Source of the DNA: Ascidiella aspersa | Lineage: Eukaryota | NCBI GenBank assembly: GCA_963924565.1 | Contig: OZ004615.1 | Span: forward strand, 25,172,001 to 25,236,000 | Length of the DNA: 64,000 nucleotides | Direction: 5' to 3' | In this document: positions 41,740 to 59,746 of the stretch, one piece after another | Position numbering within the stretch: position 1 is the stretch's first letter | Layout: each line of letters opens with the position of its first letter | The notes under the pieces: model-generated | What the model was told of the DNA's origin: nothing | Database searches by the model: none | Seen by the model: only the letters and a program-made list of their open reading frames with translations | Program-made: the position numbers and the translations under genes

Positions 41740-43700
41740 ATGGAAGGCATTGAACAACCTGCACCGATTCCCCGTCGCATTTTTGTCGGTGGTTTCGACA
41801 AGCAGACCACTGAAGAAGAACTAGAGAAAGTTTTTCAGGTGATTGCAGCGTTTTTAGCCTGAACAGATTTATGCATGCAGTAAATTTTAGACTGGAAGTG
41901 TAACATACCATACTTAAAACGAGTTTTATATAGAGGTAGCTTGGGCGCTCGTCTAGAATCCTACCACAACGAACATTATTTGGGTTAGGGTGCCGGTTAG
42001 CGTTTGGGTTTGGGTGAGTCCAGTAATAGTGTTAAACAATATTACTTGACCTACCCACACCCAAACACTAACCGACACCCTAACCCACATATTATGCATT
42101 GCTTAATAATCATTTCAACGTTGTGGTAGGATTCTAGACCAGCGCCGTAGCTTGTGCTTGGTATAGAAGTGAAGTATATCCAAAACGATTAATAAATTTT
42201 AAATATAATAGTTGGAGGTTGTAGTTAGACGTAGAATGAATATCAAAGCCCATGCAAAATTAAGTAGCATTTTGTGAACGTTTCGAATAACTCTTTCTAG
42301 TTGGGCGTAGAATAAATGTTAAATTCCAGGTAGCATTAATCGCCAGATGCTATATTTTATCTAAAGAGATAATAAATATTGAAATTTAGCTTTATTTTAG
42401 TTTAAGAATATGAAAATTGCAAATAGGAACTACAACTACCGTCTGTTATTTATTTTATAACATGGTATTTTAGTGCTAACATGAATTTATTGCTCGACAG
42501 TTTATCGCTAACAAAACGAAAAAAGAGAAACAATAAGTTATAGTTTTATCCCCCATATGAGTAGCGTATCTTATGGAACAGAATATTACAAAAGTATTTA
42601 TTTTGTTGCAGTTTTGCGGCCGAGTTGTGGACGCGAATATTGTGAAGGAAACAGCAAATAACGCTTACGCTTTTGTGACCTTTTTCTACGAGGATTCTGC
42701 AGCCATGGTGCTCTCACAAAAGGTTAGTTGCTCCATTGCGTCGCAAAGACACATGATATTTGGTGTTGTATTCCGACACCGATAGTTTGATAAAAAGTAT
42801 TGGTAATGGAACCTTATCAGAATTGAGTTATTACTGTTATCAAATAGGCAAAAAGGATTAAAATTTGATAATAAATTAACACATTACCTGGAAATGATAC
42901 AAGCTCGTATCAAAACGTCTTATCAAGATGATGTCGATCTACTCGACCTTTTTGGCTTTGCAATTTATTATCAAGCTATATTACAGATCCGTGCATAGAG
43001 TACCCAAGAATTAAAATTATAAAGTAAAATTGTAGTTTTTTTAGGTTATTCGGCAAGAATTCGCTTCAGCCTACGTAAACGTTTTGATTTTCTCTTCGAT
43101 TTTTAATAAAACTTAACATCGGGTGCCGGCCCATATCTGCAGCTATTTACCTATGCTCGTTTTGTAATTAAAATTCCCATGACGAAAACCTGCAGATATT
43201 TTCCACAAAAAAGGCTCGGTCATATTAAAGTAGAAAAGCAACTACTAAATTTAAATAAGGAAAACATCGATTGGTTTCACTATGAGAACCGCTAAAGGAC
43301 ATTTTTCATCTTTGAAGTAAAATGTTTACACGCCGTACAATTGAAATTCGCCGAGATTAACAAGACTGTGTTATTTTTTTTTAAAGAATAAGGTTTATTT
43401 TTGTCATGGAATTAAATTATCAAAACGTTCACCTACAGTAAGCTTTATGTCTAAAACTGGCTTATTTCTTTCTATTTTTACCCTATTTTTAGACTCTTCT
43501 TATATAATTCGCCTCTTAATAACAAGCAATGTTTTTGCCACTTACTTTACGTAAAGAGCCAACATTATCACTTTTCTTTCTTGTTACAGTACAGCTTCTT
43601 TATTCGAGGGCAGCGTCTCCGTGTTTCACCTGCATATCTCAGAAACAAACCACGGCCCACTTATTTGTGGAGCTGTGTACATCACCAATGCTTTTACTAG
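41740..43700 (+). CDS. BOLL: Boule/DAZ-family-like single-RRM RNA-binding protein, 106 aa, 3 coding exons
   Basis: Exons 41740-41838, 42612-42722, 43590-43700 (all phase 0). IPRRIFVGG (RNP2; Boule has IPNRIFVGG), TTEEELEKVF, AYAFVTF (RNP1), GQRLRVSPA; AATAAA at 43843 and 43904. Confidence 0.75.
41944..42146. mobile_element. Foldback MITE (GG-terminal TIR, 8-bp TSD; Merlin-like) in RRM gene intron 1
   Basis: 28-bp TIRs ggcgctcgtctagaatcctaccacaacg / cgttgtggtaggattctagaccagcgcc (1 mismatch); perfect TSD GTAGCTTG; internal inverted GGGTTAGGG-like arms. Confidence 0.88.
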
Positions 43701-45779: not shown

Positions 45780-48700
45780 TCACAGCTTTGTCAAAACCGG
45801 TTTCTCGTCAGGGAATTCCCCGCAGTCTTCCACAACATAATGGTCGTCGTCCAAAGTGTCCACAGGGGTCATGGTGGAGGGAGGGGGCAAATGCACCCCT
45901 ATGAGGAGCTTGTAGACCATGGCCCCCAAAACACCCCCGATTAGGGGGCCAACGATGGGAACCCAGAACCAATACATGTTGTTTGGCGCCCTGGGCGTAA
46001 AATATAAATAAACTTTTTTTTAATTTTCTTTATACTTTTAAGCATATTCAAAGTCAGTCATTTCATTTTACCAATTCATTATTTTCATGCTATAAATTTG
46101 AACGGTTTCATTTGAAGTCATTGCCGTAATTTAATCACAATGGGCCAGACGATATTTACAAAACATTTATTTTGGTATTTCCTTTAGTAATGTTTTTGTG
46201 AAATTACCACTAACATAAGAGGTGTAAAGTGTAAACTTTTGCAGAAGCAGTACGCATTGTGTTTTAAGATGCATAAATATCGCAGAAAAATAAAATATAA
46301 TGCACTATTTTTTAGCACAGGCAAAGTCAGCCATTTAATAACAAGTTCATGAGAAATACATTTCACAAATATTGGCATTATCAGTCGACTAATTATAATG
46401 GTAAATTACATTACAAATGTAAACCAGACTGGCGAAGGTGGCGAATTTTTATATCTTATTGCCCCTGTCATCACAGCCAAAAACGTCTAGTAATTCATAT
46501 GATCTTGATAAAGACGTTTCGATATTTTAGTTATATTAATCATGATGGTACAAGCTCGTATCGCAACGCCTTAATAATCAAGATGATGTCGATCTACTCG
46601 ACCTTTTTGGCTTTAACTTTCATTATCAAGCTACATTACAGATCCGTGCATAGTGTGCGTAAGTATTCTGTAACTTACGTAATAACCTCGCCTCAGAATT
46701 GTTTTACTCAAACGACATTAAAAGGGCATTAATCAAACATTCTTGTGGTTTTGACAATAATAAAATAATAGTTTGATACATTGTAAAAGGCAGATAATCT
46801 TGATAAAGACGTTTCGATACGAACTTGTATCATCTTCATCTAACGTTTAAAAAATAACAATAACTAATGCTGATGCAAGCTCGTATCGAAAGGTCTTAAC
46901 AAGATGATGTCGATCTACTCGACCTTTTTGGCATTGCAATTCATTACGAAGCTGCATTACAGATCCGTGCATAGTGTGCCTAAGTATACCGTTACTTACG
47001 TGAAAACTTCTCCTCCCCAACCAGCGATGTATGTGAAGAATCGTGGCCCGAAGTCCCTTGCTGGGTTGATCGCGTAGCCACAGTTTAAGCCGTAAGACAA
47101 ACCTGGAACACAATAACACAAACTACAGGACGGTGCCGACTGGGTATTCTGTAAAGTTACAAGTAGGATTCCGATAATATCGGACAGAAACCGATACTTG
47201 ATGCAAAGTGGCAGGATTATTACGATATATATTCGTTTTATTCCGATTGGCAGTTCCGACATTTTAAGCCTAAACTTTACGATCAAATCACAAATTACGT
47301 CATTAATACACTCTAAAGCAAAATATGTGAAATTGACACTTTCACAGGTTGCTCTGTTTTCTTTTTTTCAGGGTTGTTAGGCTAAGGATTTTCTTCAGCG
47401 TTATAATGTTAAGGTATTCTTCCAGTTGGTATAACCTATTATTTTTTGATATATTTAACTTTAAGTGTCAAATCGCTGCGTTGATCGCAAATCTGAAATT
47501 CCTATATTTGGTTTTGGATCTGCACCGATACCACCCTAGTATCGGACGATTACCGATACTACCACATGGTATCGGGTATCCGCTCCAACCGATATTGTCG
47601 AACATATGCCTACTGCTAGCCTGTTTACCACAACGCATTTCAAGAATGTTTCATTACAGACCGGGTATACTGTCAAACGCATGTAGATTTTCTGTGTCTT
47701 TTAGAAAATACCTTGGATAAACTGTAGGTTTGTAATCTGCTACTATAGGTTGTAACATACACTTTGGAAAAACTTCAAGATTATTAACCTATCATTGTAG
47801 AATGCGAACCGTCGGCTCACTCAAGGTGTGGCCAGATTTCAATACACAGCTTATTCACTATACCAGGAAAATCAGGTTCAGGTTTAATCTAATCTCCACT
47901 CACCCAACACAAACACAATGAATCCGATCGCTATTGGTTGAAGTCCCGGTGCAACCTTGCTGTTCCGCTCATCCGTTATTGCGAAGACTAATCCGACCAG
48001 CATGGCTGTCCCGAAAATCTACGGATTTCGATTTGAATATAATTTTGCTATGAGGCATTGTATCAATTGTAAAAGTTTGGAGCATAATGGTTGTAGGTTG
48101 TGGTAAGACGTAATGAGAATATCAAAGCCCATACAGAAGTGGTTGGCATTTAAAATAATCACTTCTAATTGTAAAATTGTTTTTTTTAATAAATATAGGC
48201 CTACCCACATTTCGACAACCTATACAGGAAATCTTCATCAGGGCAATAATATTGCAACTGGGAAATAAAATGTATATAGCAGTCAAAAAACAAAGAAAAA
48301 TCAATGGAACACGGTTTGTAAAACGATGTTTCGCTGTGTTTCCTTTCTGTATAGGTTTCAAAACGTTGGTAAATTTTTTAAATAATATTTGCCGGAAGAA
48401 CAATTTTACAATTGATGGATCTCGATTTTTTTGTTTATTACCATGAATACGGAAGACTGCCTTACATGATATGGTGGTTGGGTCAAATTAAAAAAAACTT
48501 TTTTATTAAAACTATTTAAATTGAAGACTTTCTAAAACACTGTAGAAATATCTTAAACGAGCATTCACCTAAGATTTTAAAACTTACATTTGATAAAGCA
48601 TACGTGTATTTGAACATATTGGCAAAAGTATTTCCTTAAAAGGTTTTTTAAACTGTTTATTTAAACAAATGTCTGTAACACATATCAACAGTTAGAAGAT

Positions 48701-51700
48701 CTACGGATTTCGATTTTTTGTTTATTACCGCAAATATACAAAAGACTGCTTCTTGTAAATGTTTGAGATTACTTTTGCGATCGATTATACTTAAGCTGCT
48801 TGCACGACGATTTAAGCTTTCTAGAATTTGCAAGTGCTTTTAAAATGAAGTTTTGACAAATAAAACCTACAGAATAAGGCAAGCTACGGCCCGCGGAGGA
48901 ATTTAATCCGGTCCGGAGCCGACTTTCTTTAGGTAAAAGTAAAAAGTAAGTATTTACGTTTTTTATGAAGTTAAGAATTTTTATTGAATAGATTACACTT
49001 GCAAGGCGTCCTAACTTATTCTTATGTTGTACATACTAATAGCGGCTTGTCAAAACTAGAATATTTATACGCTTCTTAACAAGGAAATCACACTTTATAT
49101 TTTGTGTATTTCAGATACCCTTTTTCAACCTGTCAGAAAAATTTTTCAAAACATTTTTGATGCCTGTCAAAAATAATTGTCCACCCCTGCTATAACATAT
49201 GCTTTGTAAAACACAAATATCCACTCATTTACAAAGATATTTTTAGTGAAAACATTTAAAGTGTATGTTTTCCAAAAGGCTGCAGATATTAAAGAAACAA
49301 AAAAATATGTGTATTTAAATATATATTTCCTTTATCAAAAAAAAAATACATACTTGAAAAGTTTTAAACGTATGTTATTTAAAGAAATGTCTAAAATACC
49401 TTAATAAAAAAACACTAAAATATATATCTATTGGTTAGATAATTTTTTTAAATTATAAGAAATAGTTGATGGGCAGAAAGCCCAATCCTTTAGTAATTAG
49501 GTCAGATTGTATTTACTGCAAGTGCTTTATTTGTTGTGGGAAACGTTAACGTTGGGCCAGGCGTGTATATTTAATGCGTAAACGGTTTAGAGATTAAAAG
49601 ATTAGAAGGCGTGTCTCCCTTATCAGAGATGAATGTGCAGATTAAAACTGGTTTAACGCGCTGTGGAATGTGAGGAGTAATTATGGCACTTAAATTTACC
49701 GAAGAACGTATAATCGTATGCATTCTCACAGGATGACGCTCTCTATATGTGCACAAACTTTTTACTGGAGAAGAAAAGTTTAATGTGCTAAAATGGTTTT
49801 GGTTATGGCAACAACATAAAAAAAAATCTTTTGGGTTTGGCGCTCATCTTGTTCCTGCACCGAGTGTAAATTAAAAAAAAACTTGGTTTTATCCCGGATA
49901 AACAGTCGTTGCGGTTATTATAAGATGCGTAAAGTTTACACTACACCGTTTAAAAAATAACGGCCCGCAAAGACCTTTCATTTTATTTTTGCCCCTGACT
50001 AGAAAAAGGCTGCCCACCCCTGATTGAAACCCTTATGTACCTTAATAAAGCACCTTCATGTGAGTATGAGACGAAACATCTACTCAGAGTAGAAATATAT
50101 AAGGTTTTTGTGTGGGGAGCATCTGTCCCTAATGTACCCACCTGGTCCCACAGCCCCCCTCCTATAGAAAGGTAGTCCTGGGGGTAGGTGCAGAATATAC
50201 CCCCTGTTCCTGTTGGGCCAAGGATCTGTCGGACGCCGCCGTCGAAAGCGTTGAGGCCGTCTGAACATATATTAAAAATAAGTTAATTACGAGAAGATGA
50301 TACTCTTAATTCAGTTCTACATATTGATAGTTATCAATTTTAGGGCTTTTGTCAAGAAAACGTTTTTATAAATCTGATTTTTTTTAAATTTATGGTAAAC
50401 TCTGTATAAATAGACGATTTAGACGTTTTAACTTCAGAAATGAACTTCTGTCAATACAAACGATTACTACCAATCATATGAACAGTAAGCAACAATGTTA
50501 ATCCATTTTTCATAGCCTTTTGACTTTAATACCATGTGGAAAATTCAAATTTTTAAATAATCGAAAAAAATTAGCCACAAATCATAAGGCTATTCATAAA
50601 TCGAGTGAAATCCCGGAGTATAGCTATACTTCATACCATAGTAAACAGAGTAGACGGCTGCTCCTGACACAAAAGCCCCAAGAACTTGCGAGAAAAAGAA
50701 GAAGGGAAGTTTGTAAGCAGGTAACTTGCCGAACACGCACATCGCTGTTGAAACTGCAGGGTTGATGTGTGCGCCTGCAAAACATAAACCGGTTCAAACC
50801 ACCACAACATAATTACCGGCCTCACCCATCAGCCGTCCCTGGGTATTTGACGTGAAGTAATGAATTAAGTTAAAAAATTAAGTGCACTCATATCACTCTT
50901 TTCTAATGACTAAACTTAAGTCTTTTGGACAAACGACTTGACTTGGACTTACTTTATGAAAGCTATTGTATGTAAAAATCTCACAATTAAAGAAAAGTCA
51001 ATAAAAAATTTGCAAAACATATTTTGTGTTTTTATATTTTAAAACGGCGACTGCGTAGTGCACCTGCAAAGCACAAACCGGTTTAGACGACCACAACATA
51101 TTTAACGGCCCCACCTTAATTCTTTCGTGGTTTCTTAGCTCCTAACCTGTTTGGCCAGTGCTAATTAATTGTAAATTTGACAGTTTTTAATGACTTAAGT
51201 CAAACAATAAACTGGCCACAGTTTTCAAATGACTTTACTTAAGTCTTTTAGGCAAATTAGCTTGACCTGGCTTGAATTTTTCTTTTAAAAAATCTCATAT
51301 ATATAGAAAACTCAAGAAAAATTTTGCAGGACAGAATAATTTTGTGCATTTTATACTTTTAATCAGCGGCAGCGAAACAGTTTGTGAATAACAAACCGGT
51401 TTTCAAAACGACCAACATATTTACCGGCCCCGCCTTAATTCTTCACTGCCCTTAGCTGCTAACCTGTTTGATCAGTGCTATGCAATTGATTTGCAATCAG
51501 TAGCCATAGGTTGTAGAAAGCCGGCCCCGGACCGGATTAAATTCCTCCGCGGGCCATAGCTTGAATTTAATTGTTTTATTCAACATTTTATTATAAAATT
51601 GAGCTATTTCATTTTTCCACCTAAAACAATAAGATGGCCCAATGTCGTATTATTGGTATTTTTTACTTGGGCTTTTGCCAACAGTCGAACAAGTTCAACA

Positions 51701-54489
51701 TATATTTTACATATTTACCGACCTCAACCTAATTCTTTTGTAGAATTTTTTAGCTTTTGACTTGCTTAGGCAACCGATTTTTCTCAGCCGCCTTGGATAT
51801 CTAGCAACTATTTTTAAATGAATAAAATACCAGACAAGGCATTTGCAAAATAATTTAAGTCCAGACAGATAGATAGTAGGTTAACAACTGGAGTTAACTA
51901 AACTAACTGGCGCTAAGCAAATTTCGGTCAACTACCCTTTAAAAATACCTTAAACGATTCATTTCATTTGTTTTGCTTGTTTGAGCAAAGTAATGACGTC
52001 ACTTATCGCATCGGAATAAAATGTCAAGTATCGGACAACTCTACTGGTAGAATTAATTAAAAAAAAACAGTTATTTAAACCTTTTTTGAGAACAATATGC
52101 ACTTTGAGCCGAAAGAACAGGTTAACAACAGACGACACACCCCTTTTAAACCGGTGACCACCCCCCCCCTATGACGCACATTACTACACACAATACAAAC
52201 AGATATAAGTGCGATTACGGGGAGCAATAAACGTGGCGTTAAAGTTGTTTGAACAGTTTTTACTGAGATAGTAAAGTTAAGTTTGCTGACTTAGTATGCG
52301 GATCGGCACAACTTGTTGTTTTCAAGCATATGTTTTTTTTTGTCAAAATGCGTTTTTCGCTCTTCGTAACTAAATTCAAGTGGGAGGTTAGCATTTCTGA
52401 TAAGTTAGTGTTTCTCAGCTTTTTACGCTGCGACCCAAATACTTTCACTAAACTTTTTACATGCCAACAAACCACACGGCAACGACAGAAATAAGTTCGT
52501 ATCTGAGTAATATGGATAATTACATTAAAGTGTTAGTATCAGTACTCGTCCGATACTAGAAGTGGTATTGGTGCCGATTCGATAGCAAATTAATACAGGA
52601 ATTTAAACCAATCATTTGCAAAGCAACCAACGATCAACGATGATAGCAAATTTGTCAAAAAATATGAGTTTAACAACTGAAAGTAGCTAAACTTCTGAGC
52701 ACCAAAGCAAATTTTGGCCTAAAAACAAATAAAAGTTACATTTCAACATTTCAATGCACCTATCTTGCATGTTGGAGAACAGTGATGACGTCATTTGGTA
52801 TCGTATCGTATCGCGATACTTTTTGATCTAAAATATCGGGTATCGGTATCCCTGCTTAGGACCACTATTCTAGCAGCTCAAAGTACCGAATTAGGGACTT
52901 ACCCGACACACTCCCAACGGCGTATATTGCCATGGTAACCCCGAGGCCGTAAGCCCAGTTGATCGAGATAAAACCACCGTTGGCTTCTTTGCTCAACACA
53001 CTCTGCGCCACTGAACCGTTGCCGAATATCTACAAAGAGTTGGAAATTATAGAAACCTGATGGATAGGCATTATCATGTTCATATTCAAATAGAACATAA
53101 ATAGGCTATATATAGAAATTTAAATCTTGGTCAATCGTAGTATTTGTCTTATTTAAAAAATGAAAACAAGTAGCAAAGTTGTATTTTACTGTTTGAGTAA
53201 GACTTAATACCTTAACCTGATGAAGCACGGTTGTGCGAAGCTCGTCAATATTAAATACTATTTCTCAACAGTTCGTGTTAACCATTCGATTCACATCTTT
53301 CAAATTTGAAAAGACGGCTTTTTAGCAAGGTTTTATGTTTGGTTACGAAAACTGAGTCAAAAGTATACAGACAAAAGATTTGTTATTATATCGATGTAAA
53401 AAAAATTACCTCCAATTTAGGAATTTTTTTGACTGTGTGCCTTTTATATGACTGCAAAAACTTTAGGTACTTTACGACCAGTGGGAAAGTAAACCGGGAC
53501 GATGGGAAAAAGCGCTGTGGTAAAAATATGTCCTTATTCTTTTCACGAAAGTCATGTCCAAAAACATGTTTGCTTCTTTAGTCGCATACTTATGAAGGAC
53601 ATAGCACGCTAGACCTATAGGTTGTTTAAGCTTGTGCATGATTTTTGAGTTTCCTTTAAGAATTTAGGACATCATTTCTAAAAGCTTTCATGCGTTCAGG
53701 TAAAAAAGTATTAATTTCACCCCCGGGTTACGCCTGGTTACGTTGAAAATTTGCGACACTCACCATCAAAATAAAAGTTCCCAGAAACTCAGCCAGCATT
53801 TCACGAGCAAGCTTGTTTTCGATTCTTAGGATAGACGAGATTTTTCGCCGCCATCGCGTTCCGAATGAAGCCGGTTTATCTGCAAACACAAAACAAGAAG
53901 TAAAATTGGTTACACTATGCACGGATCTGTAATGTAGCTTGATAATAAATTGCAAAGCTAAAAAGGTCGAGTAGATCGACATCATCTTGATCGAGACGTT
54001 TCGATACTTCTTTATTCGATAAGTTTCGATATGAAATCATACGGTATCGATATAGGAATAAAATGTCAAGTATCGAACATTCTTGTCAACCAGTAAAACT
54101 CAATTTAATAAAATCAAAACCCCGAGTAGCAAGTTGAAGCAGACGTTCGCAACAAACAGCTTTGAGTTTTACTTGTTGAGTAAATTCGAATTCTTGCTAT
54201 TCGTAATGACAATTACATTTACCACTTTATTATCAAAAAAGGTGATAGAAAAAGCGTTATCTGCTTCTGATAAAATCACAAACGTTTACTTGTTATAGAG
54301 CATAATGTTTGGAGGCTGTAGTAATACGAATAGTAAGAATATCAAAGTCCACACAGAAGTAGGTGGCACTATGTGAATATTTCGAATGTCTCTTTATTCA
54401 TTTTCAACATTTTATACTTCTATATGGACTTTAATATACTTAGTACATTTATCCGTTAATTACACGTAGAAAAGTTTGCACTCACCCAT
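45780..54489 (-). CDS. Aquaglyceroporin (AQP3/7/9/10-like MIP channel), 310 aa, 8 exons
   Basis: Exons (minus strand): 54489-54486, 53879-53764, 53029-52903, 50774-50637, 50260-50142, 48018-47904, 47102-47000, 45990-45780; total 933 nt. Motifs [34 protein letters not shown] (NPARD is the glyceroporin signature), [10 protein letters not shown]. Confidence 0.96.
46500..46985. repeat. Repeat family F (two tandem copies), decayed hammerhead-bearing element
   Basis: gatacaagctcgtatcgaaacgtc...gatgatgtcgatctactcgacctttttggc...cagatccgtgcatagtgt; other copies at 42890-43005 (+) and 53912-54007 (-). Confidence 0.85.
48201..48246 (-). ncRNA. Degenerate hammerhead ribozyme in aquaporin intron 5
   Basis: UUGCC-CUGAUGA-A-GAU..CCUGUAUAGG..GUC-GAA-AUGU-G-GGUAG; position 17 is G, so probably inactive. 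Confidence 0.55.
48876..49189. mobile_element. Decayed hAT-like MITE (ggcccgcgg...gtccacccctg)
   Basis: CCCCTG end and GGCCCG subterminal motifs; related fragments at 49960-50022, 51520-51562 (inverted) and 59040. Confidence 0.45.
50772..51760. repeat. Degenerate ~300-bp tandem repeats in aquaporin intron 3 that include the exon-4 acceptor
   Basis: cctgcaaa.ca.aaaccggtt...ccacaacata.tt.ccggcc recurs at ~50774, ~51063, ~51390 and partially at ~51710. Confidence 0.75.
53217..53254 (+). ncRNA. Degenerate hammerhead-like motif in aquaporin intron 2 (antisense)
   Basis: CUGAUGA-A-GCAC-GGUU-GUGC-GAA-GCUCGUC; A15.1 mutated and stem I disrupted. Confidence 0.4.
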
Positions 54490-54689
54490 TACTTCAGGTT
54501 ATGTCCAGGTGATTTCTTTGGCGACCACGTCTACAAATCTCCACACTATATTAACAGCGAATTCTTGCAAAGCCTAAACCGATTTCCACGAACACAAATA
54601 ACGACCGGTTTAGCAGCCTGAAGGCAACTAATAATAATCAGGCGACGATGCCGATGTTATACCACGCTCTGCAAACTCTGTAACCTGCG

Positions 54690-54710
54690 TAACACCTTAT
54701 ATATACATAG
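54690..54710 (-). promoter_or_regulatory. TATA-like box of the aquaglyceroporin gene
   Basis: Minus strand gtatatataagg about 210 nt upstream of the ATG-containing first exon. Confidence 0.4.
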
Positions 54711-57700
54711 CAGCGCTAAGTCTAGTTAAGCTAAAGGGACTTGCCATCTAATTCGAACGGAATAGCAACGCTGTTGTGTGAAATTTCCACATGACATCAA
54801 CTGAACCGATGTGCAACATTCCTGTGAGATTACACGCATGAGAATGACCCAATTGGTCACTGGGCTTCACAGGCTGACCGCTGACCAGATGACCCCGCAT
54901 TGACCCGTATAAAGTGACGTCACTGATCGACAATGTCCACTGCTAACTTATTTAAGACTTTCGTTGAATGTTATCACGTTCAAAAATTGCCCTCAGAAAT
55001 ACGTAGCTTATTGTTTAAGAAGCTCCAACACAACAACTCAGTGACTTGACCTACACTGTTTATTTTATTAAATATTTATCGAAATTATTGTTTTTAAAAA
55101 TGACTTATTTAAATCTTACGTTTGGTTATCAATTTTTTTGAGCTTGTTGCACGGTTGGAAAATAAAAAAAAATAAAAATATTTACCTGAGCAGCTCCTTA
55201 AATATTTAATCTCAAAGCCGATTTAAACTGTTACTACATTTTTTAATTAAAGTATATAGCTTGCTTGGTAAAACATGCGAGAGGATTATTATTCAAAAGC
55301 GCTAGGACTTTTTTTACGACGCTCTTAAACAGTTTTATAAAGATTCAGCTTTGGTAAACGCTGAGAAATTTGAAGATACCGCAGTTATTTCATCTAAGTA
55401 GCAAGTAAACTGATAAATATCTCTGTTTAGTTGCAGTGGTTGTGTAGGCTATACTTTAATATACAGTTCAGATTATGACGGCAGAAATCACCAACTGCAG
55501 AAAATGCGCCAATCGCTGCAATCTTTCCCACTTGTTAAACCACGCCATGTTAAACATTTGGAATTCGCCCTTTTTCCCGATCCTATTGAACCACAGTGGG
55601 CAACTGTCAGATTAGCTGCGGGCTGTTTGCATGCGGTTTTAGGAATCTGTTAAAAACTAAGCTTGGCGTGTCCAAACACAAAGAACTGGCCCCACATTGC
55701 GCAGCAGTTTGTTTACTTGCTTGTCCACGGTCTTTATGTATTTATGGACCACAACGTTTTAATCTTCCAGGTCATTTATAACCCATATAATTTGCCGGTC
55801 TTGTTAGTGCAAAAAATATAGTTGTGATATATTACATGCAAGATTTCGTGCAGTAAACGTTTTTCTGTGATAAGACACCAGAAAACAAAATTCCTATGTT
55901 GACTTGCAGAACACATAAGCTTTCTATGACAGACACTACATATTATATGATCTCTATGAATAGACCGCACTCATATTATAGTTTTGCAAAAATTAAGCAA
56001 GTAGAAAGATAACAGCAAAAAAAGTGTGTCTTAATGCAAAAGTAATGGGGCACGATGCGCTTAAACATGCCAAAAATGTGATATTTTTCTACAAAATTCC
56101 GGCTTTGTCGACTCAACGGCTTTCAATTTATGATGAAATCCTGTTTTAAAGACAATTTAAGTTGACTATATCAAAGGTTATGACTTTATTGTTTTTGCCT
56201 TATCCGTAAATTAAAACTATTGCTTTTTGATTTCTAGCTTTGGTACTTTCGTTGAAATGAAGCTACTATCGCTCTAATGTATATTTAATAATTATGTCAT
56301 AACAGATTCTTGCATATTTTTTTGGCCACCAACCCCTAAAAAATTATTTTTGATTTTCGTGGAGCAGTGTCATGATAAATGTTTTTTTAATGATGACGTC
56401 ATAAAAAAGTGGACATAAGAAACCCGCATTAAGTCGTACAAATATGAAACCGAATTAATTTGAAACTTATAAAGTAAGATTTTAATTAGGCCTTTATAGA
56501 CCCACAAAAACTACTCTAAACCCTCGAGGGGTACATGCACCCCCAGAACCACTGTATTATAAAATATCGAAGTATTTATCCCTCAAAGATAGGACAGTAG
56601 GCTATCAATTATAGAATCTGGAACATTGGAAAGCACGTTTTGCTGACGTATGCAATTTTGCTGAAGCGTATGTTAACAAGTGGATCTCTAACCTCAAAAA
56701 CATGCGCAAGGTCTAAGTCTAGCTTATGCTGAAAATAGTCTATAAAGTTAAAATCATCGAAAGATCCAAAATTGATAAACGGATTCCATCTCTTTGAATA
56801 AAACGAGACTGTGCTTTTTTTTACTTTTTTGTTTACATTAAAAATATTGGTTGTCGCAGTGGTTTTCAAAAGTTTTTCCTTACAACGGAGAAGTTTGTTT
56901 GGACTTGTAATTTCATTGATTTGTTTGTTTGTAACAAAACGTCAAAATCGAATCGCTCGTTTTCACTCTTCTTATCGTTTCGACTGGTCTAAAAGCTTTA
57001 CAATTTTGGCTATTTCACCTTGAAAAGATCGGCAAACTAGTTTTACTAGCGGCAAAATATTTAAAAGCGTTAACCGTTAGGTGCTGCTAACGAGCAAAAA
57101 AAATGTTGAAAAGGACTAAATCACTGTTTAGTCTAAGAATGCAGCGGTGGGTTGAACGGTACTGGGCGTTTTACATATTTTACCAGATAGACAATAACAC
57201 CGCGTTAAAAACTTTGTTTTTGCTAAAACTTTTAATAACCACTGGTTTTTAAACGCACGTATTTGCGAAATACTTGAAACGTAAATATTTCGCATTGTAA
57301 AATAGAACACCGAACAAAATGTTGTTATATCCTTTCATACCGTGATTAATTGACGTTGACATACTGGTGTGCAAAACGCCTATGTCGCTACTATTTAAAC
57401 ATTTGAAATCACGTTTATGGAAATAATGTCGTTTACAGGAACGCGAAAAGCTAAAATGTCCAACCTCCAACCTTAATGCTCCCAAAGGTAAAATCTTACT
57501 AAATTTGTGAAGAACCGGTAACAAGTGTCCTGTGTAATAATAGTAAAACCACCAGAGCAGATACGAAACTAACACAAATTGATACTACTGTACTAAAAGC
57601 TTACAACACAAAAAATCCTACTGGCGTTGTAATAACCTTAAACCCAATTTATTTTTTTGTTTTCTTTTATTTCTTGTTTCCAAGTTGCACAAAAAAATGA

Positions 57701-59556: not shown

Positions 59557-59746
59557 ATGATAAAGATTAAACTAAGTACAGAACTTAGTAAACCGAAAAT
59601 CAGTTTGTTTGTATGTAATAAAAGAACATTCATTCGAATTAAGATACTGATGATGCTGTATAGCGAAATATATTTATCTTTTCATTACATACAAACAAAC
59701 TGATTTTCGGTTTACTAAGTTCTGTACTTAGTTTAATATTTATCAT
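59557..59746. repeat. ~68-bp inverted repeat flanking a hammerhead
   Basis: 59557-59624 is the near-perfect reverse complement of 59677-59746. Confidence 0.9.
59641..59680 (+). ncRNA. Minimal type-I hammerhead ribozyme within a foldback element
   Basis: AAGAUA-CUGAUGA-U-GCU-GUAU-AGC-GAA-AUAUAU-U^UAUCUU; perfect 6-bp stem I, palindromic stem III. Confidence 0.75.

Follow-up and report, generated by a model that had tools for sequence, protein, structure and literature searches.

Exons 2 to 7 of an aquaglyceroporin gene of the ascidian Ascidiella aspersa lie between oppositely oriented copies of one transposon end, and the locus is an ordinary reverse-complementary match of the Alu-like kind. 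The account that most probably applies as a whole combines two independent 3′-end insertions of a Penelope-like element, which are likely, a nearness to the splice sites that is likely accidental, and a circle of exons 2 to 7 that, where it is formed, would be a low-level by-product. On the predicted folding, a detectable circle of these exons in an expressing tissue would be possible, if rather doubtful, and a selected function of the pair is decidedly unlikely. The window, i.e., the whole stretch of DNA analysed, comprises 64,000 nucleotides, and all coordinates refer to it.

The minus-strand gene encodes an intact 310-aa aquaglyceroporin of the AQP3/7/10 type, whose frame is open once the exons are joined. 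It contains a MIP domain (PF00230, matched by five of the seven exon pieces) and NPA motifs at residues 87 and 219, the second in the form NPARD; the best PDB matches of the exon 7/NPARD region are AQP3, AQP10 and AQP7 (E 1e-12 to 1e-10). All seven introns show GT-AG borders, intron 1 measures 606 nt, and the two splice sites that concern us are the exon 2 acceptor at 53880/53879 and the exon 7 donor at 47000/46999. In one RNA run, exon 8 reaches a depth of 2.4, on the expected strand only, and depth is zero in the bin 54506-54800, so that exon 1 stays putative. A lookup of RNA records for exon 8 listed none, which counts neither for nor against its expression. A genome search with exon 7 returned a single candidate and no aquaglyceroporin paralogue.

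Table 1. Exons of the aquaglyceroporin gene and repeat-related features, in the order of transcription
Feature	Position	Strand	Basis
Putative exon 1	54486..54700	-	3′ end with ATG G, GTGAGT donor, 310-aa frame on joining; 5′ limit provisional
Fragment of the Penelope-like terminal repeat in intron 1; its pre-mRNA orientation is element-sense	53906..54007	-	sequence matches to family
Exon 2 (116 nt), candidate back-splice acceptor	53764..53879	-	gene model
Exon 3 (127 nt)	52903..53029	-	gene model; MIP match E 0.014
Other inverted repeat, intron 3 arm	51515..51563	.	pairs with 48880-48928 (49 nt, 94%)
Exon 4 (138 nt), first NPA	50637..50774	-	gene model; MIP E 1e-9
Exon 5 (119 nt)	50142..50260	-	gene model
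Other inverted repeat, intron 5 arm	48880..48928	.	partner is 51515-51563
Exon 6 (115 nt)	47904..48018	-	gene model; MIP E 2e-5
Exon 7 (103 nt), NPARD, candidate back-splice donor	47000..47102	-	gene model; PDB matches
Terminal repeat in intron 7, copy 1; its pre-mRNA orientation is antisense	46857..46987	+	sequence matches to family
Short inverted arm of copy 1	46794..46846	-	local hairpin with 46867-46908 (-41.6 kcal/mol)
Duplicated flank: decayed exon 7 end and second GTAAGT, 322 nt into intron 7	46657..46694	-	
Terminal repeat in intron 7, copy 2; real donor about 340 nt away	46529..46656	+	sequence matches
Short inverted arm of copy 2	46472..46524	-	sequence matches
Exon 8, coding portion through stop	45780..45990	-	gene model; MIP E 0.001
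Fourth copy of the family, intronic in the adjacent RRM gene	42880..43007	+	

The copies occupy, in opposite orientation, the introns that flank a block of exons with canonical splice sites. The intron-1 copy (53912-54007) matches the opposite strand of 46883-46977 at 89.6% over 96 nt (E 2e-31) and that of 46558-46656 at 86.9% over 99 nt. Measured from the BLAST cores, the gap to the exon 2 acceptor is 32 nt and that to the exon 7 donor 22 nt; measured from the family ends, the gaps are 26 nt and about 12 nt. These values bear out the earlier note, which had described the first copy as about 95 nt long and about 30 nt from the acceptor, its opposite as about 20 nt past the donor, a second opposite copy at about 46545-46660, and an identity of 85-90% by eye. 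Both intron-7 copies have in common a flank of about 38 nt that takes in the donor and some 19 nt of exon 7, and therefore represent one duplicated insertion. The RRM-gene copy is nearer to the intron-1 copy (93%) than either of them is. The presumed order starts with an older insertion next to the exon 7 donor and continues with its local duplication together with 38 nt of flank; the insertion ahead of the exon 2 acceptor would have come later, or may be the less decayed one.

The sequence identifies the repeat as a Penelope-like retroelement's 3′ terminal repeat, with a genome-wide family. One of its 15-mers has 989 exact matches in the genome (control, 0) and the repeat has 1719 candidates, which puts its copy number at about a thousand or more. 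The terminal repeat is present at 11 of the 12 loci found via an endonuclease-like fragment, and a GIY-YIG-like frame precedes it in long copies; at locus L090 it lies about 100 nt behind a frame of 309 aa, which, like that of L085, shows a YVDD motif and VVY..CxC..YIG. An Atlas score of 0.96 connects the element to clusters with PF26215 (90-98% of members) and GIY-YIG (13-14%), and Pfam gave no match for any of three element fragments. The minimal hammerhead core pattern occurs in 30 of 41 loci and is missing or defective in each of the four copies in the window: that of intron 1 is 5′-truncated ahead of the CUGA core, and the short arm of copy 1 has a core with A in place of C3. An active ribozyme cutting the pre-mRNA is thereby ruled out. 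An Rfam search returned no hammerhead, the minimum-free-energy structure of the monomer differs from the ribozyme fold, and eight miRNA-like Rfam hairpins, all below threshold, were dropped. An inverted truncated arm lies within 500 nt at 17 of 29 loci outside the window and in five of ten insertions over 264 kb, both intron-7 copies included; passages of PMC8557442 and PMC4209133 describe Penelope-like elements (PLEs) with 5′ truncation and such an adjacent arm. A MITE with terminal inverted repeats was rejected, because the length of the second arm is variable and long copies continue into a reverse transcriptase-endonuclease frame.

Equilibrium folding predicts an 86-bp duplex between introns 1 and 7, with a gain of -81 to -86 kcal/mol over the local folds (net about -85), in a pre-mRNA where two other inverted pairs compete. 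It had been claimed that the ends nearest the exons pair with each other; the geometry for this holds, whereas folding prefers the distal duplicate, copy 2 (0.81), over the donor-adjacent copy 1 (0.12). The duplex would be possible if intron 1 had not yet been spliced out by the time the polymerase has made intron 7, 7 kb further on. There is about an even chance that the pair is silent, the 606-nt intron 1 being already removed when transcription reaches intron 7, and the copies there folding on their own inverted arms. Short introns are in general spliced co-transcriptionally, the intron-1 copy and copy 1 are separated by 6.9 kb, and the local hairpins (-41.6 and -23.5 kcal/mol) can form immediately, all of which counts for silence; yet the local arms span no more than about 40 nt, with about 70 nt left free, the long-range duplex beats the hairpins at equilibrium (a matter of folding energies), and intron 1, whose own 3′ end starts in the repeat, may splice slowly. 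A silent pair is a silent version of the accidental-insertion explanation, and the two overlap.

For the RNA check, a single raw RNA run was aligned to the gene together with three sets of contigs. From the 1177 million letters of the run, the exon 2 bin receives about 19 (depth 0.06), which is too thin for back-splicing, and no back-splice or skip joint appears among the 15 of 553 joints listed, at a depth too low to count. Repeat-derived reads dominate, just 39 of 2234 RNA reads being at least 99% alike, and mask joints and editing; T>C and A>G places in this repeat-swamped run are even (47 and 46), as in DNA-like runs. As for the products, exons 2 to 7 sum to 718 nt and the joined gene model reads across the back-splice junction with the very letters given in the earlier note, which had also put the circle at 718 nt. 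An endless circular ORF is ruled out, since 718 is not divisible by 3 and the junction itself makes a stop codon. Skipping from exon 1 to exon 8 is out of frame and would leave a 17-aa peptide.

It has also been considered that the pair is an exapted switch, in which pairing yields either the 718-nt circle or the exon 1-8 skip and tunes dose. Both arms adjoin the right splice sites, the net pairing gain is the one given above, inverted repeats of 30-40 nt suffice for back-splicing in human-cell minigenes according to parts of PMC4201285, and the 17-aa frameshift would provide a clean off state. Such a switch is nevertheless very improbable: the preferred partner is the distal duplicate, the joints listed, at their very low depth, include neither product, TE-flanked mammalian circles are argued in a portion of PMC8516420 to be mostly by-products, and the arms show no sign of co-adaptation. 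Indeed, identity to the majority of 48 genomic copies is 96.9% for the intron-1 copy, 91.8% for copy 1 and 89.0% for copy 2, an unequal decay of 3% versus 8-11%, and none of the three changes of the intron-1 copy is found in either intron-7 copy. In the duplex with copy 1, 11 positions depart from canonical pairing (three G-U, four A-C, three other mismatches and one bulge), and comparison of the arms with the family majority gives no shared or compensatory changes and no G-U bias. The match of copy 1 to the intron-1 copy (0.887, against a median of 0.856 for other copies) is surpassed by 10 of 34 unrelated copies. A selected docking/selector pairing fails on compensatory changes (no shared change, three G-U against four A-C), and a Dscam-like docking site with alternative exons is ruled out, as the duplicated donor has just about 19 decayed exon bases; splicing from this donor would lengthen the transcript by 322 nt, preceded by an immediate stop. 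Also very improbable is that Penelope repeats are this lineage's Alu-equivalent and that the pair was recruited as a switch into a stable exon 2-7 circle, which, given the junction stop, could encode a 213-aa channel without its last helix.

The match between the arms is far beyond random-sequence chance because they belong to a transposon family. For a pair in the gene's introns, the chance that both inner ends come to within 30 nt of the correct splice sites is 8e-4; a rough null expects 0.4-4 tight pairs per genome if the repeat-rich region is typical and 20-40% of pairs lie within one gene's introns, two assumptions that probably inflate the expectation. Inverted pairs of at least 60 nt and at least 80% identity within 10 kb number 12 in 264 kb, with two more in the aquaglyceroporin gene. 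Local clustering of the family is unexplained by uniform insertion: 264 kb hold six exact 15-mers where 0.85 would be expected, and 11 kb hold three independent copies where the expectation is 0.04 (both post hoc). By eye, the immediate flanks of family copies are AT-rich. This clustering, these flanks and the size of the 38-nt duplicated flank, which matches the 30-40 bp PLE tail mentioned in part of PMC8557442, would suit a family that favours insertion beside splice sites or local re-insertion and so produces clamps above uniform chance. Near counts also exceed far counts for acceptor-like (109 versus 89, p 0.18) and donor-like motifs (21 versus 15, p 0.41), each of 989, but neither excess is significant, and these sequence motifs, as distinct from annotated splice sites, are mostly chance matches with low power both ways. 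Such a bias is improbable, and accidental placement remains the preferred reading. At present the locus is one more TE-made inverted pair whose use is hypothetical; a circle, if made, would be a natural test of duplex closeness to splice sites (12-32 nt) and would show Penelope-like ends able to drive back-splicing, a subject on which the literature matches, going by their listing, held only retrozyme circles or reviews. The part of the matches covered for circular RNA and ascidians held nothing on topic.

Among known systems, the gene resembles the aquaglyceroporins AQP3/7/9/10 in its two NPA motifs, with NPARD in the second, and in its top PDB matches to AQP3, AQP10 and AQP7, and differs in having eight exons, of which the putative first, a separate one, holds the ATG. 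The family shares with Penelope-like elements with a C-terminal GIY-YIG, as portrayed in sections of PMC4209133 and PMC8557442, the 5′-truncated copies, the inverted truncated arm and, in long copies, CxC between GIY- and YIG-like motifs; like the minimal hammerhead ribozymes in PLE pLTRs, it carries one additional base between positions 9 and 10.1, together with a G10.1-C11.1 pair and the palindromic ACGU. Unlike those elements, the window copies comprise 100-200 nt of non-coding end sequence, and their ribozyme is truncated or mutated. Compared with the inverted Alu, MIR and rodent B1/ID pairs that flank circRNA exons, the repeat here is a Penelope-like terminal fragment and not a SINE, the arms are about 96 nt long and just 12-32 nt from the splice sites, and they enclose six exons and 6.9 kb, the circle being hypothetical here. 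Like those pairs, as far as extracts of PMC4201285 and PMC8516420 describe them, it combines an abundant young repeat in opposite orientation with a long predicted duplex and arms near the splice sites.

Both elements of the geometry described in the earlier note hold up: the intron-1 copy of family F, a ~96-nt repeat, is reverse-complementary to the donor-adjacent intron-7 copy (copy 1; 89.6% over 96 nt), and a second, distal intron-7 copy (copy 2) opposes it at 86.9% over 99 nt. Between the intron-1 repeat core and the exon 2 acceptor lie 32 nt (26 nt if measured from the family end), and copy 1 starts 22 nt after the exon 7 donor (~12 nt if measured from the family end), in keeping with the closeness to both splice sites reported there. 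The host gene comprises eight exons and seven GT-AG introns (606, 734, 2128, 376, 2123, 801 and 1009 nt), and its joined exons give an uninterrupted frame of 310 aa, in which NPA falls at 87 and NPARD at 219; Pfam MIP is matched by five of seven exon pieces, AQP3, AQP10 and AQP7 are the best matches to exon 7 among 16 PDB sequences, and exon 1 is presumptively placed from its ATG and donor only. Exons 2-7 sum to 718 nt, exactly the circle size proposed, and the gene model returns the same back-splice junction sequence. In the predicted circle this junction runs straight into a stop, so that the longest ATG frame is 213 aa, without the exon 8-coded part, while the predicted exon 1-to-8 skip is a frameshift (17 aa).

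Features discussed in the text (window coordinates, unless a contig of the same genome, prefix G000, is named)
Feature	Position	Strand
Aquaglyceroporin gene	45780-54700	-
Family F, intron-1 copy	53912-54007	
Family F, copy 1	46883-46977	
Family F, copy 2	46558-46656	
Alignable intron-7 segments	46496-46694; 46791-47015	
Duplicated donor, 322 nt into intron 7	46657-46694	
End of intron-1 copy to acceptor	53880-53915	
Intron 3 direct copies	50780-50830; 51065-51115; 51385-51440	
Intron 5 hammerhead-like core	48200-48248	-
Local hairpins	59557-59746; 41967-42150	
RRM gene	41740-43700	+
Surveyed 264 kb	G000:C9:25072001-25336000	
Long open frames	G000:C7:11295759; C3:20857725	

Searching the genome with the repeat yielded 1719 candidates, of which the 40 scored are 92-97% identical, and one family F 15-mer occurs exactly 989 times genome-wide (control 15-mer, 0). 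An inverted shortened arm lies at most 500 nt away in 17 of 29 non-window loci, and at one of these the longer arm encodes the end of an endonuclease-like frame. This endonuclease-like fragment, used as query, gave 150 scored matches among 376 candidates, and the repeat is present at 11 of 12 fetched loci; at one genomic locus (L090) a 309-aa frame precedes it by ~100 nt, and at another (L085) a YVDD motif is found upstream. None of three element fragments matched in a Pfam search; in the Atlas protein-cluster resource the 309-aa piece scored 0.96 with clusters bearing PF26215 (90-98%) and GIY-YIG (13-14%). A minimal hammerhead core occurs in 30 of 41 loci, with the same extra base, G-C closing pair and palindrome as in a passage of PMC4209133, and inverted shortened arms plus a 30-40 bp tail are presented as standard for Penelope-like element (PLE) insertions in part of PMC8557442. 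Together, frame link, Atlas placement, hammerhead core and inverted arms identify family F, judged by its sequence, as the 3′ terminal repeat of a Penelope-like element. An intact ribozyme core is found in none of the four window copies.

Other elements were also encountered. On contigs C7 and C3, a 62%-identical endonuclease end sits within 880- and 848-aa open frames, marking a related Penelope-like family whose open frames are long. Intron 5 carries another repeat family's hammerhead-like core, sense in the pre-mRNA and likely inactive because its cleavage triplet is GUG. Two near-perfect local hairpins with 67-nt arms (97% and 82%) are probably other foldback or inverted insertions.

The intron-7 copies are 85% identical, alignable across the donor and ~19 nt of exon 7, and have two changes from the family majority in common; this shared flank and these shared changes mark them, by sequence comparison, as a single duplicated insertion. 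They diverge from the majority by 8% and 11%, the intron-1 copy by 3%, and none of the latter's three changes is common to them. When 48 copies were taken and 34 kept (14 being short or <70% alike), 10 of the 34 were closer to the intron-1 copy than copy 1 is and 16 closer than copy 2, although neither intron-7 copy falls below the median match (0.856). Non-canonical positions in the copy-1 duplex comprise 3 G-U, 4 A-C, 3 other and 1 bulge. Given the unshared changes, the better-matching unrelated copies and this mixture, comparison across the arms and the 34 copies gives no sign of selection preserving pairing.

The duplication also carried along ~19 nt of exon 7, now decayed, and a GTAAGT donor, which might act as a decoy 5′ splice site. 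The intron-1 copy ends GTGTAACC where most copies end GTGTACCC, creating a TAAC ~31 nt before the acceptor that may serve as branch point, then at the duplex edge. In intron 3, three decayed direct copies resemble, by eye, the exon 4 acceptor region and suggest that this gene underwent a further local duplication spanning a splice site.

Folding predictions give -141 and -144 kcal/mol for the isolated duplexes and a net gain over local folds of -81 to -86 kcal/mol. With both intron-7 copies present, the predicted equilibrium between two excised pieces pairs the intron-1 arm with the distal copy (0.81) rather than the donor-adjacent one (0.12), owing to the stronger local hairpin of copy 1 (-41.6 kcal/mol). 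If intron 1 is still in place once intron 7 has been transcribed, exons 2-7 would be looped out by the distal pairing too, the duplex then lying ~340 nt from the donor. Introns 3/5 and 3/6 of the same pre-mRNA hold two further inverted pairs, and the real exon 7 donor is predicted to form a local hairpin with the element end, though a weak one (-5.2 kcal/mol).

Could such a placement arise by chance? Counted as motif matches rather than annotated sites, splice motifs are not significantly enriched at the 989 family ends (acceptor-like, 109 near vs 89 far, p 0.18; donor-like, 21 vs 15, p 0.41). The 264 kb around the gene hold 12 inverted pairs (at least 60 nt, at least 80%, within 10 kb), and the probability that a pair placed at random in the introns of this gene has each inner end no more than 30 nt from its proper site is 8.3e-4. 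Scaled from this region with the gene's own pairs removed, and assuming that 20-40% of pairs fall within one gene's introns, 0.4-4 tight pairs are expected per genome, a rough figure and probably an overestimate, given how rich in repeats the region is. The local clustering of the family argues against purely uniform chance: 10 insertions in 264 kb and, in post hoc comparisons, 6 exact 15-mers vs 0.85 expected (~seven times the genome mean) and 3 independent copies within 11 kb vs 0.04 expected. The fourth window copy lies in an intron of the neighbouring RRM gene, which runs convergently towards the 3′ end of the aquaporin gene, matches RRM_1 with two of its exons and presumably resembles boule/DAZ.

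RNA was sampled as 1177 million letters, ~6% of one run. The exon 8 bin reaches a depth of 2.4 on the expected strand, against 0 on the opposite one; depth drops to 0.06 by exon 2 and to 0 by exon 1. The gene is therefore weakly transcribed in this sample. Nearly all of the 2234 reads aligned to the gene derive from other repeat copies, and among them no editing skew is visible. The exon 2 bin received ~19 letters, enough for no more than one read across the back-splice, and the 15 listed of 553 joints include no splice or back-splice.

At the level of titles, literature on Penelope/back-splicing and ascidian circular RNA offered no report of PLE ends in a back-splicing role. The proposed exon 2-7 circle is possible; a detectable low-level circle seems to us somewhat doubtful, and a selected switch very improbable. 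According to PMC4201285, repeats of 30-40 nt are enough for circularisation in minigenes, some repeats are ineffective and more stable hairpins can inhibit, and a five-mammal study (PMC8516420) makes the case that most circles with young TEs on their flanks are by-products. By analogy, the inverted family F pair would act like an inverted Alu pair.
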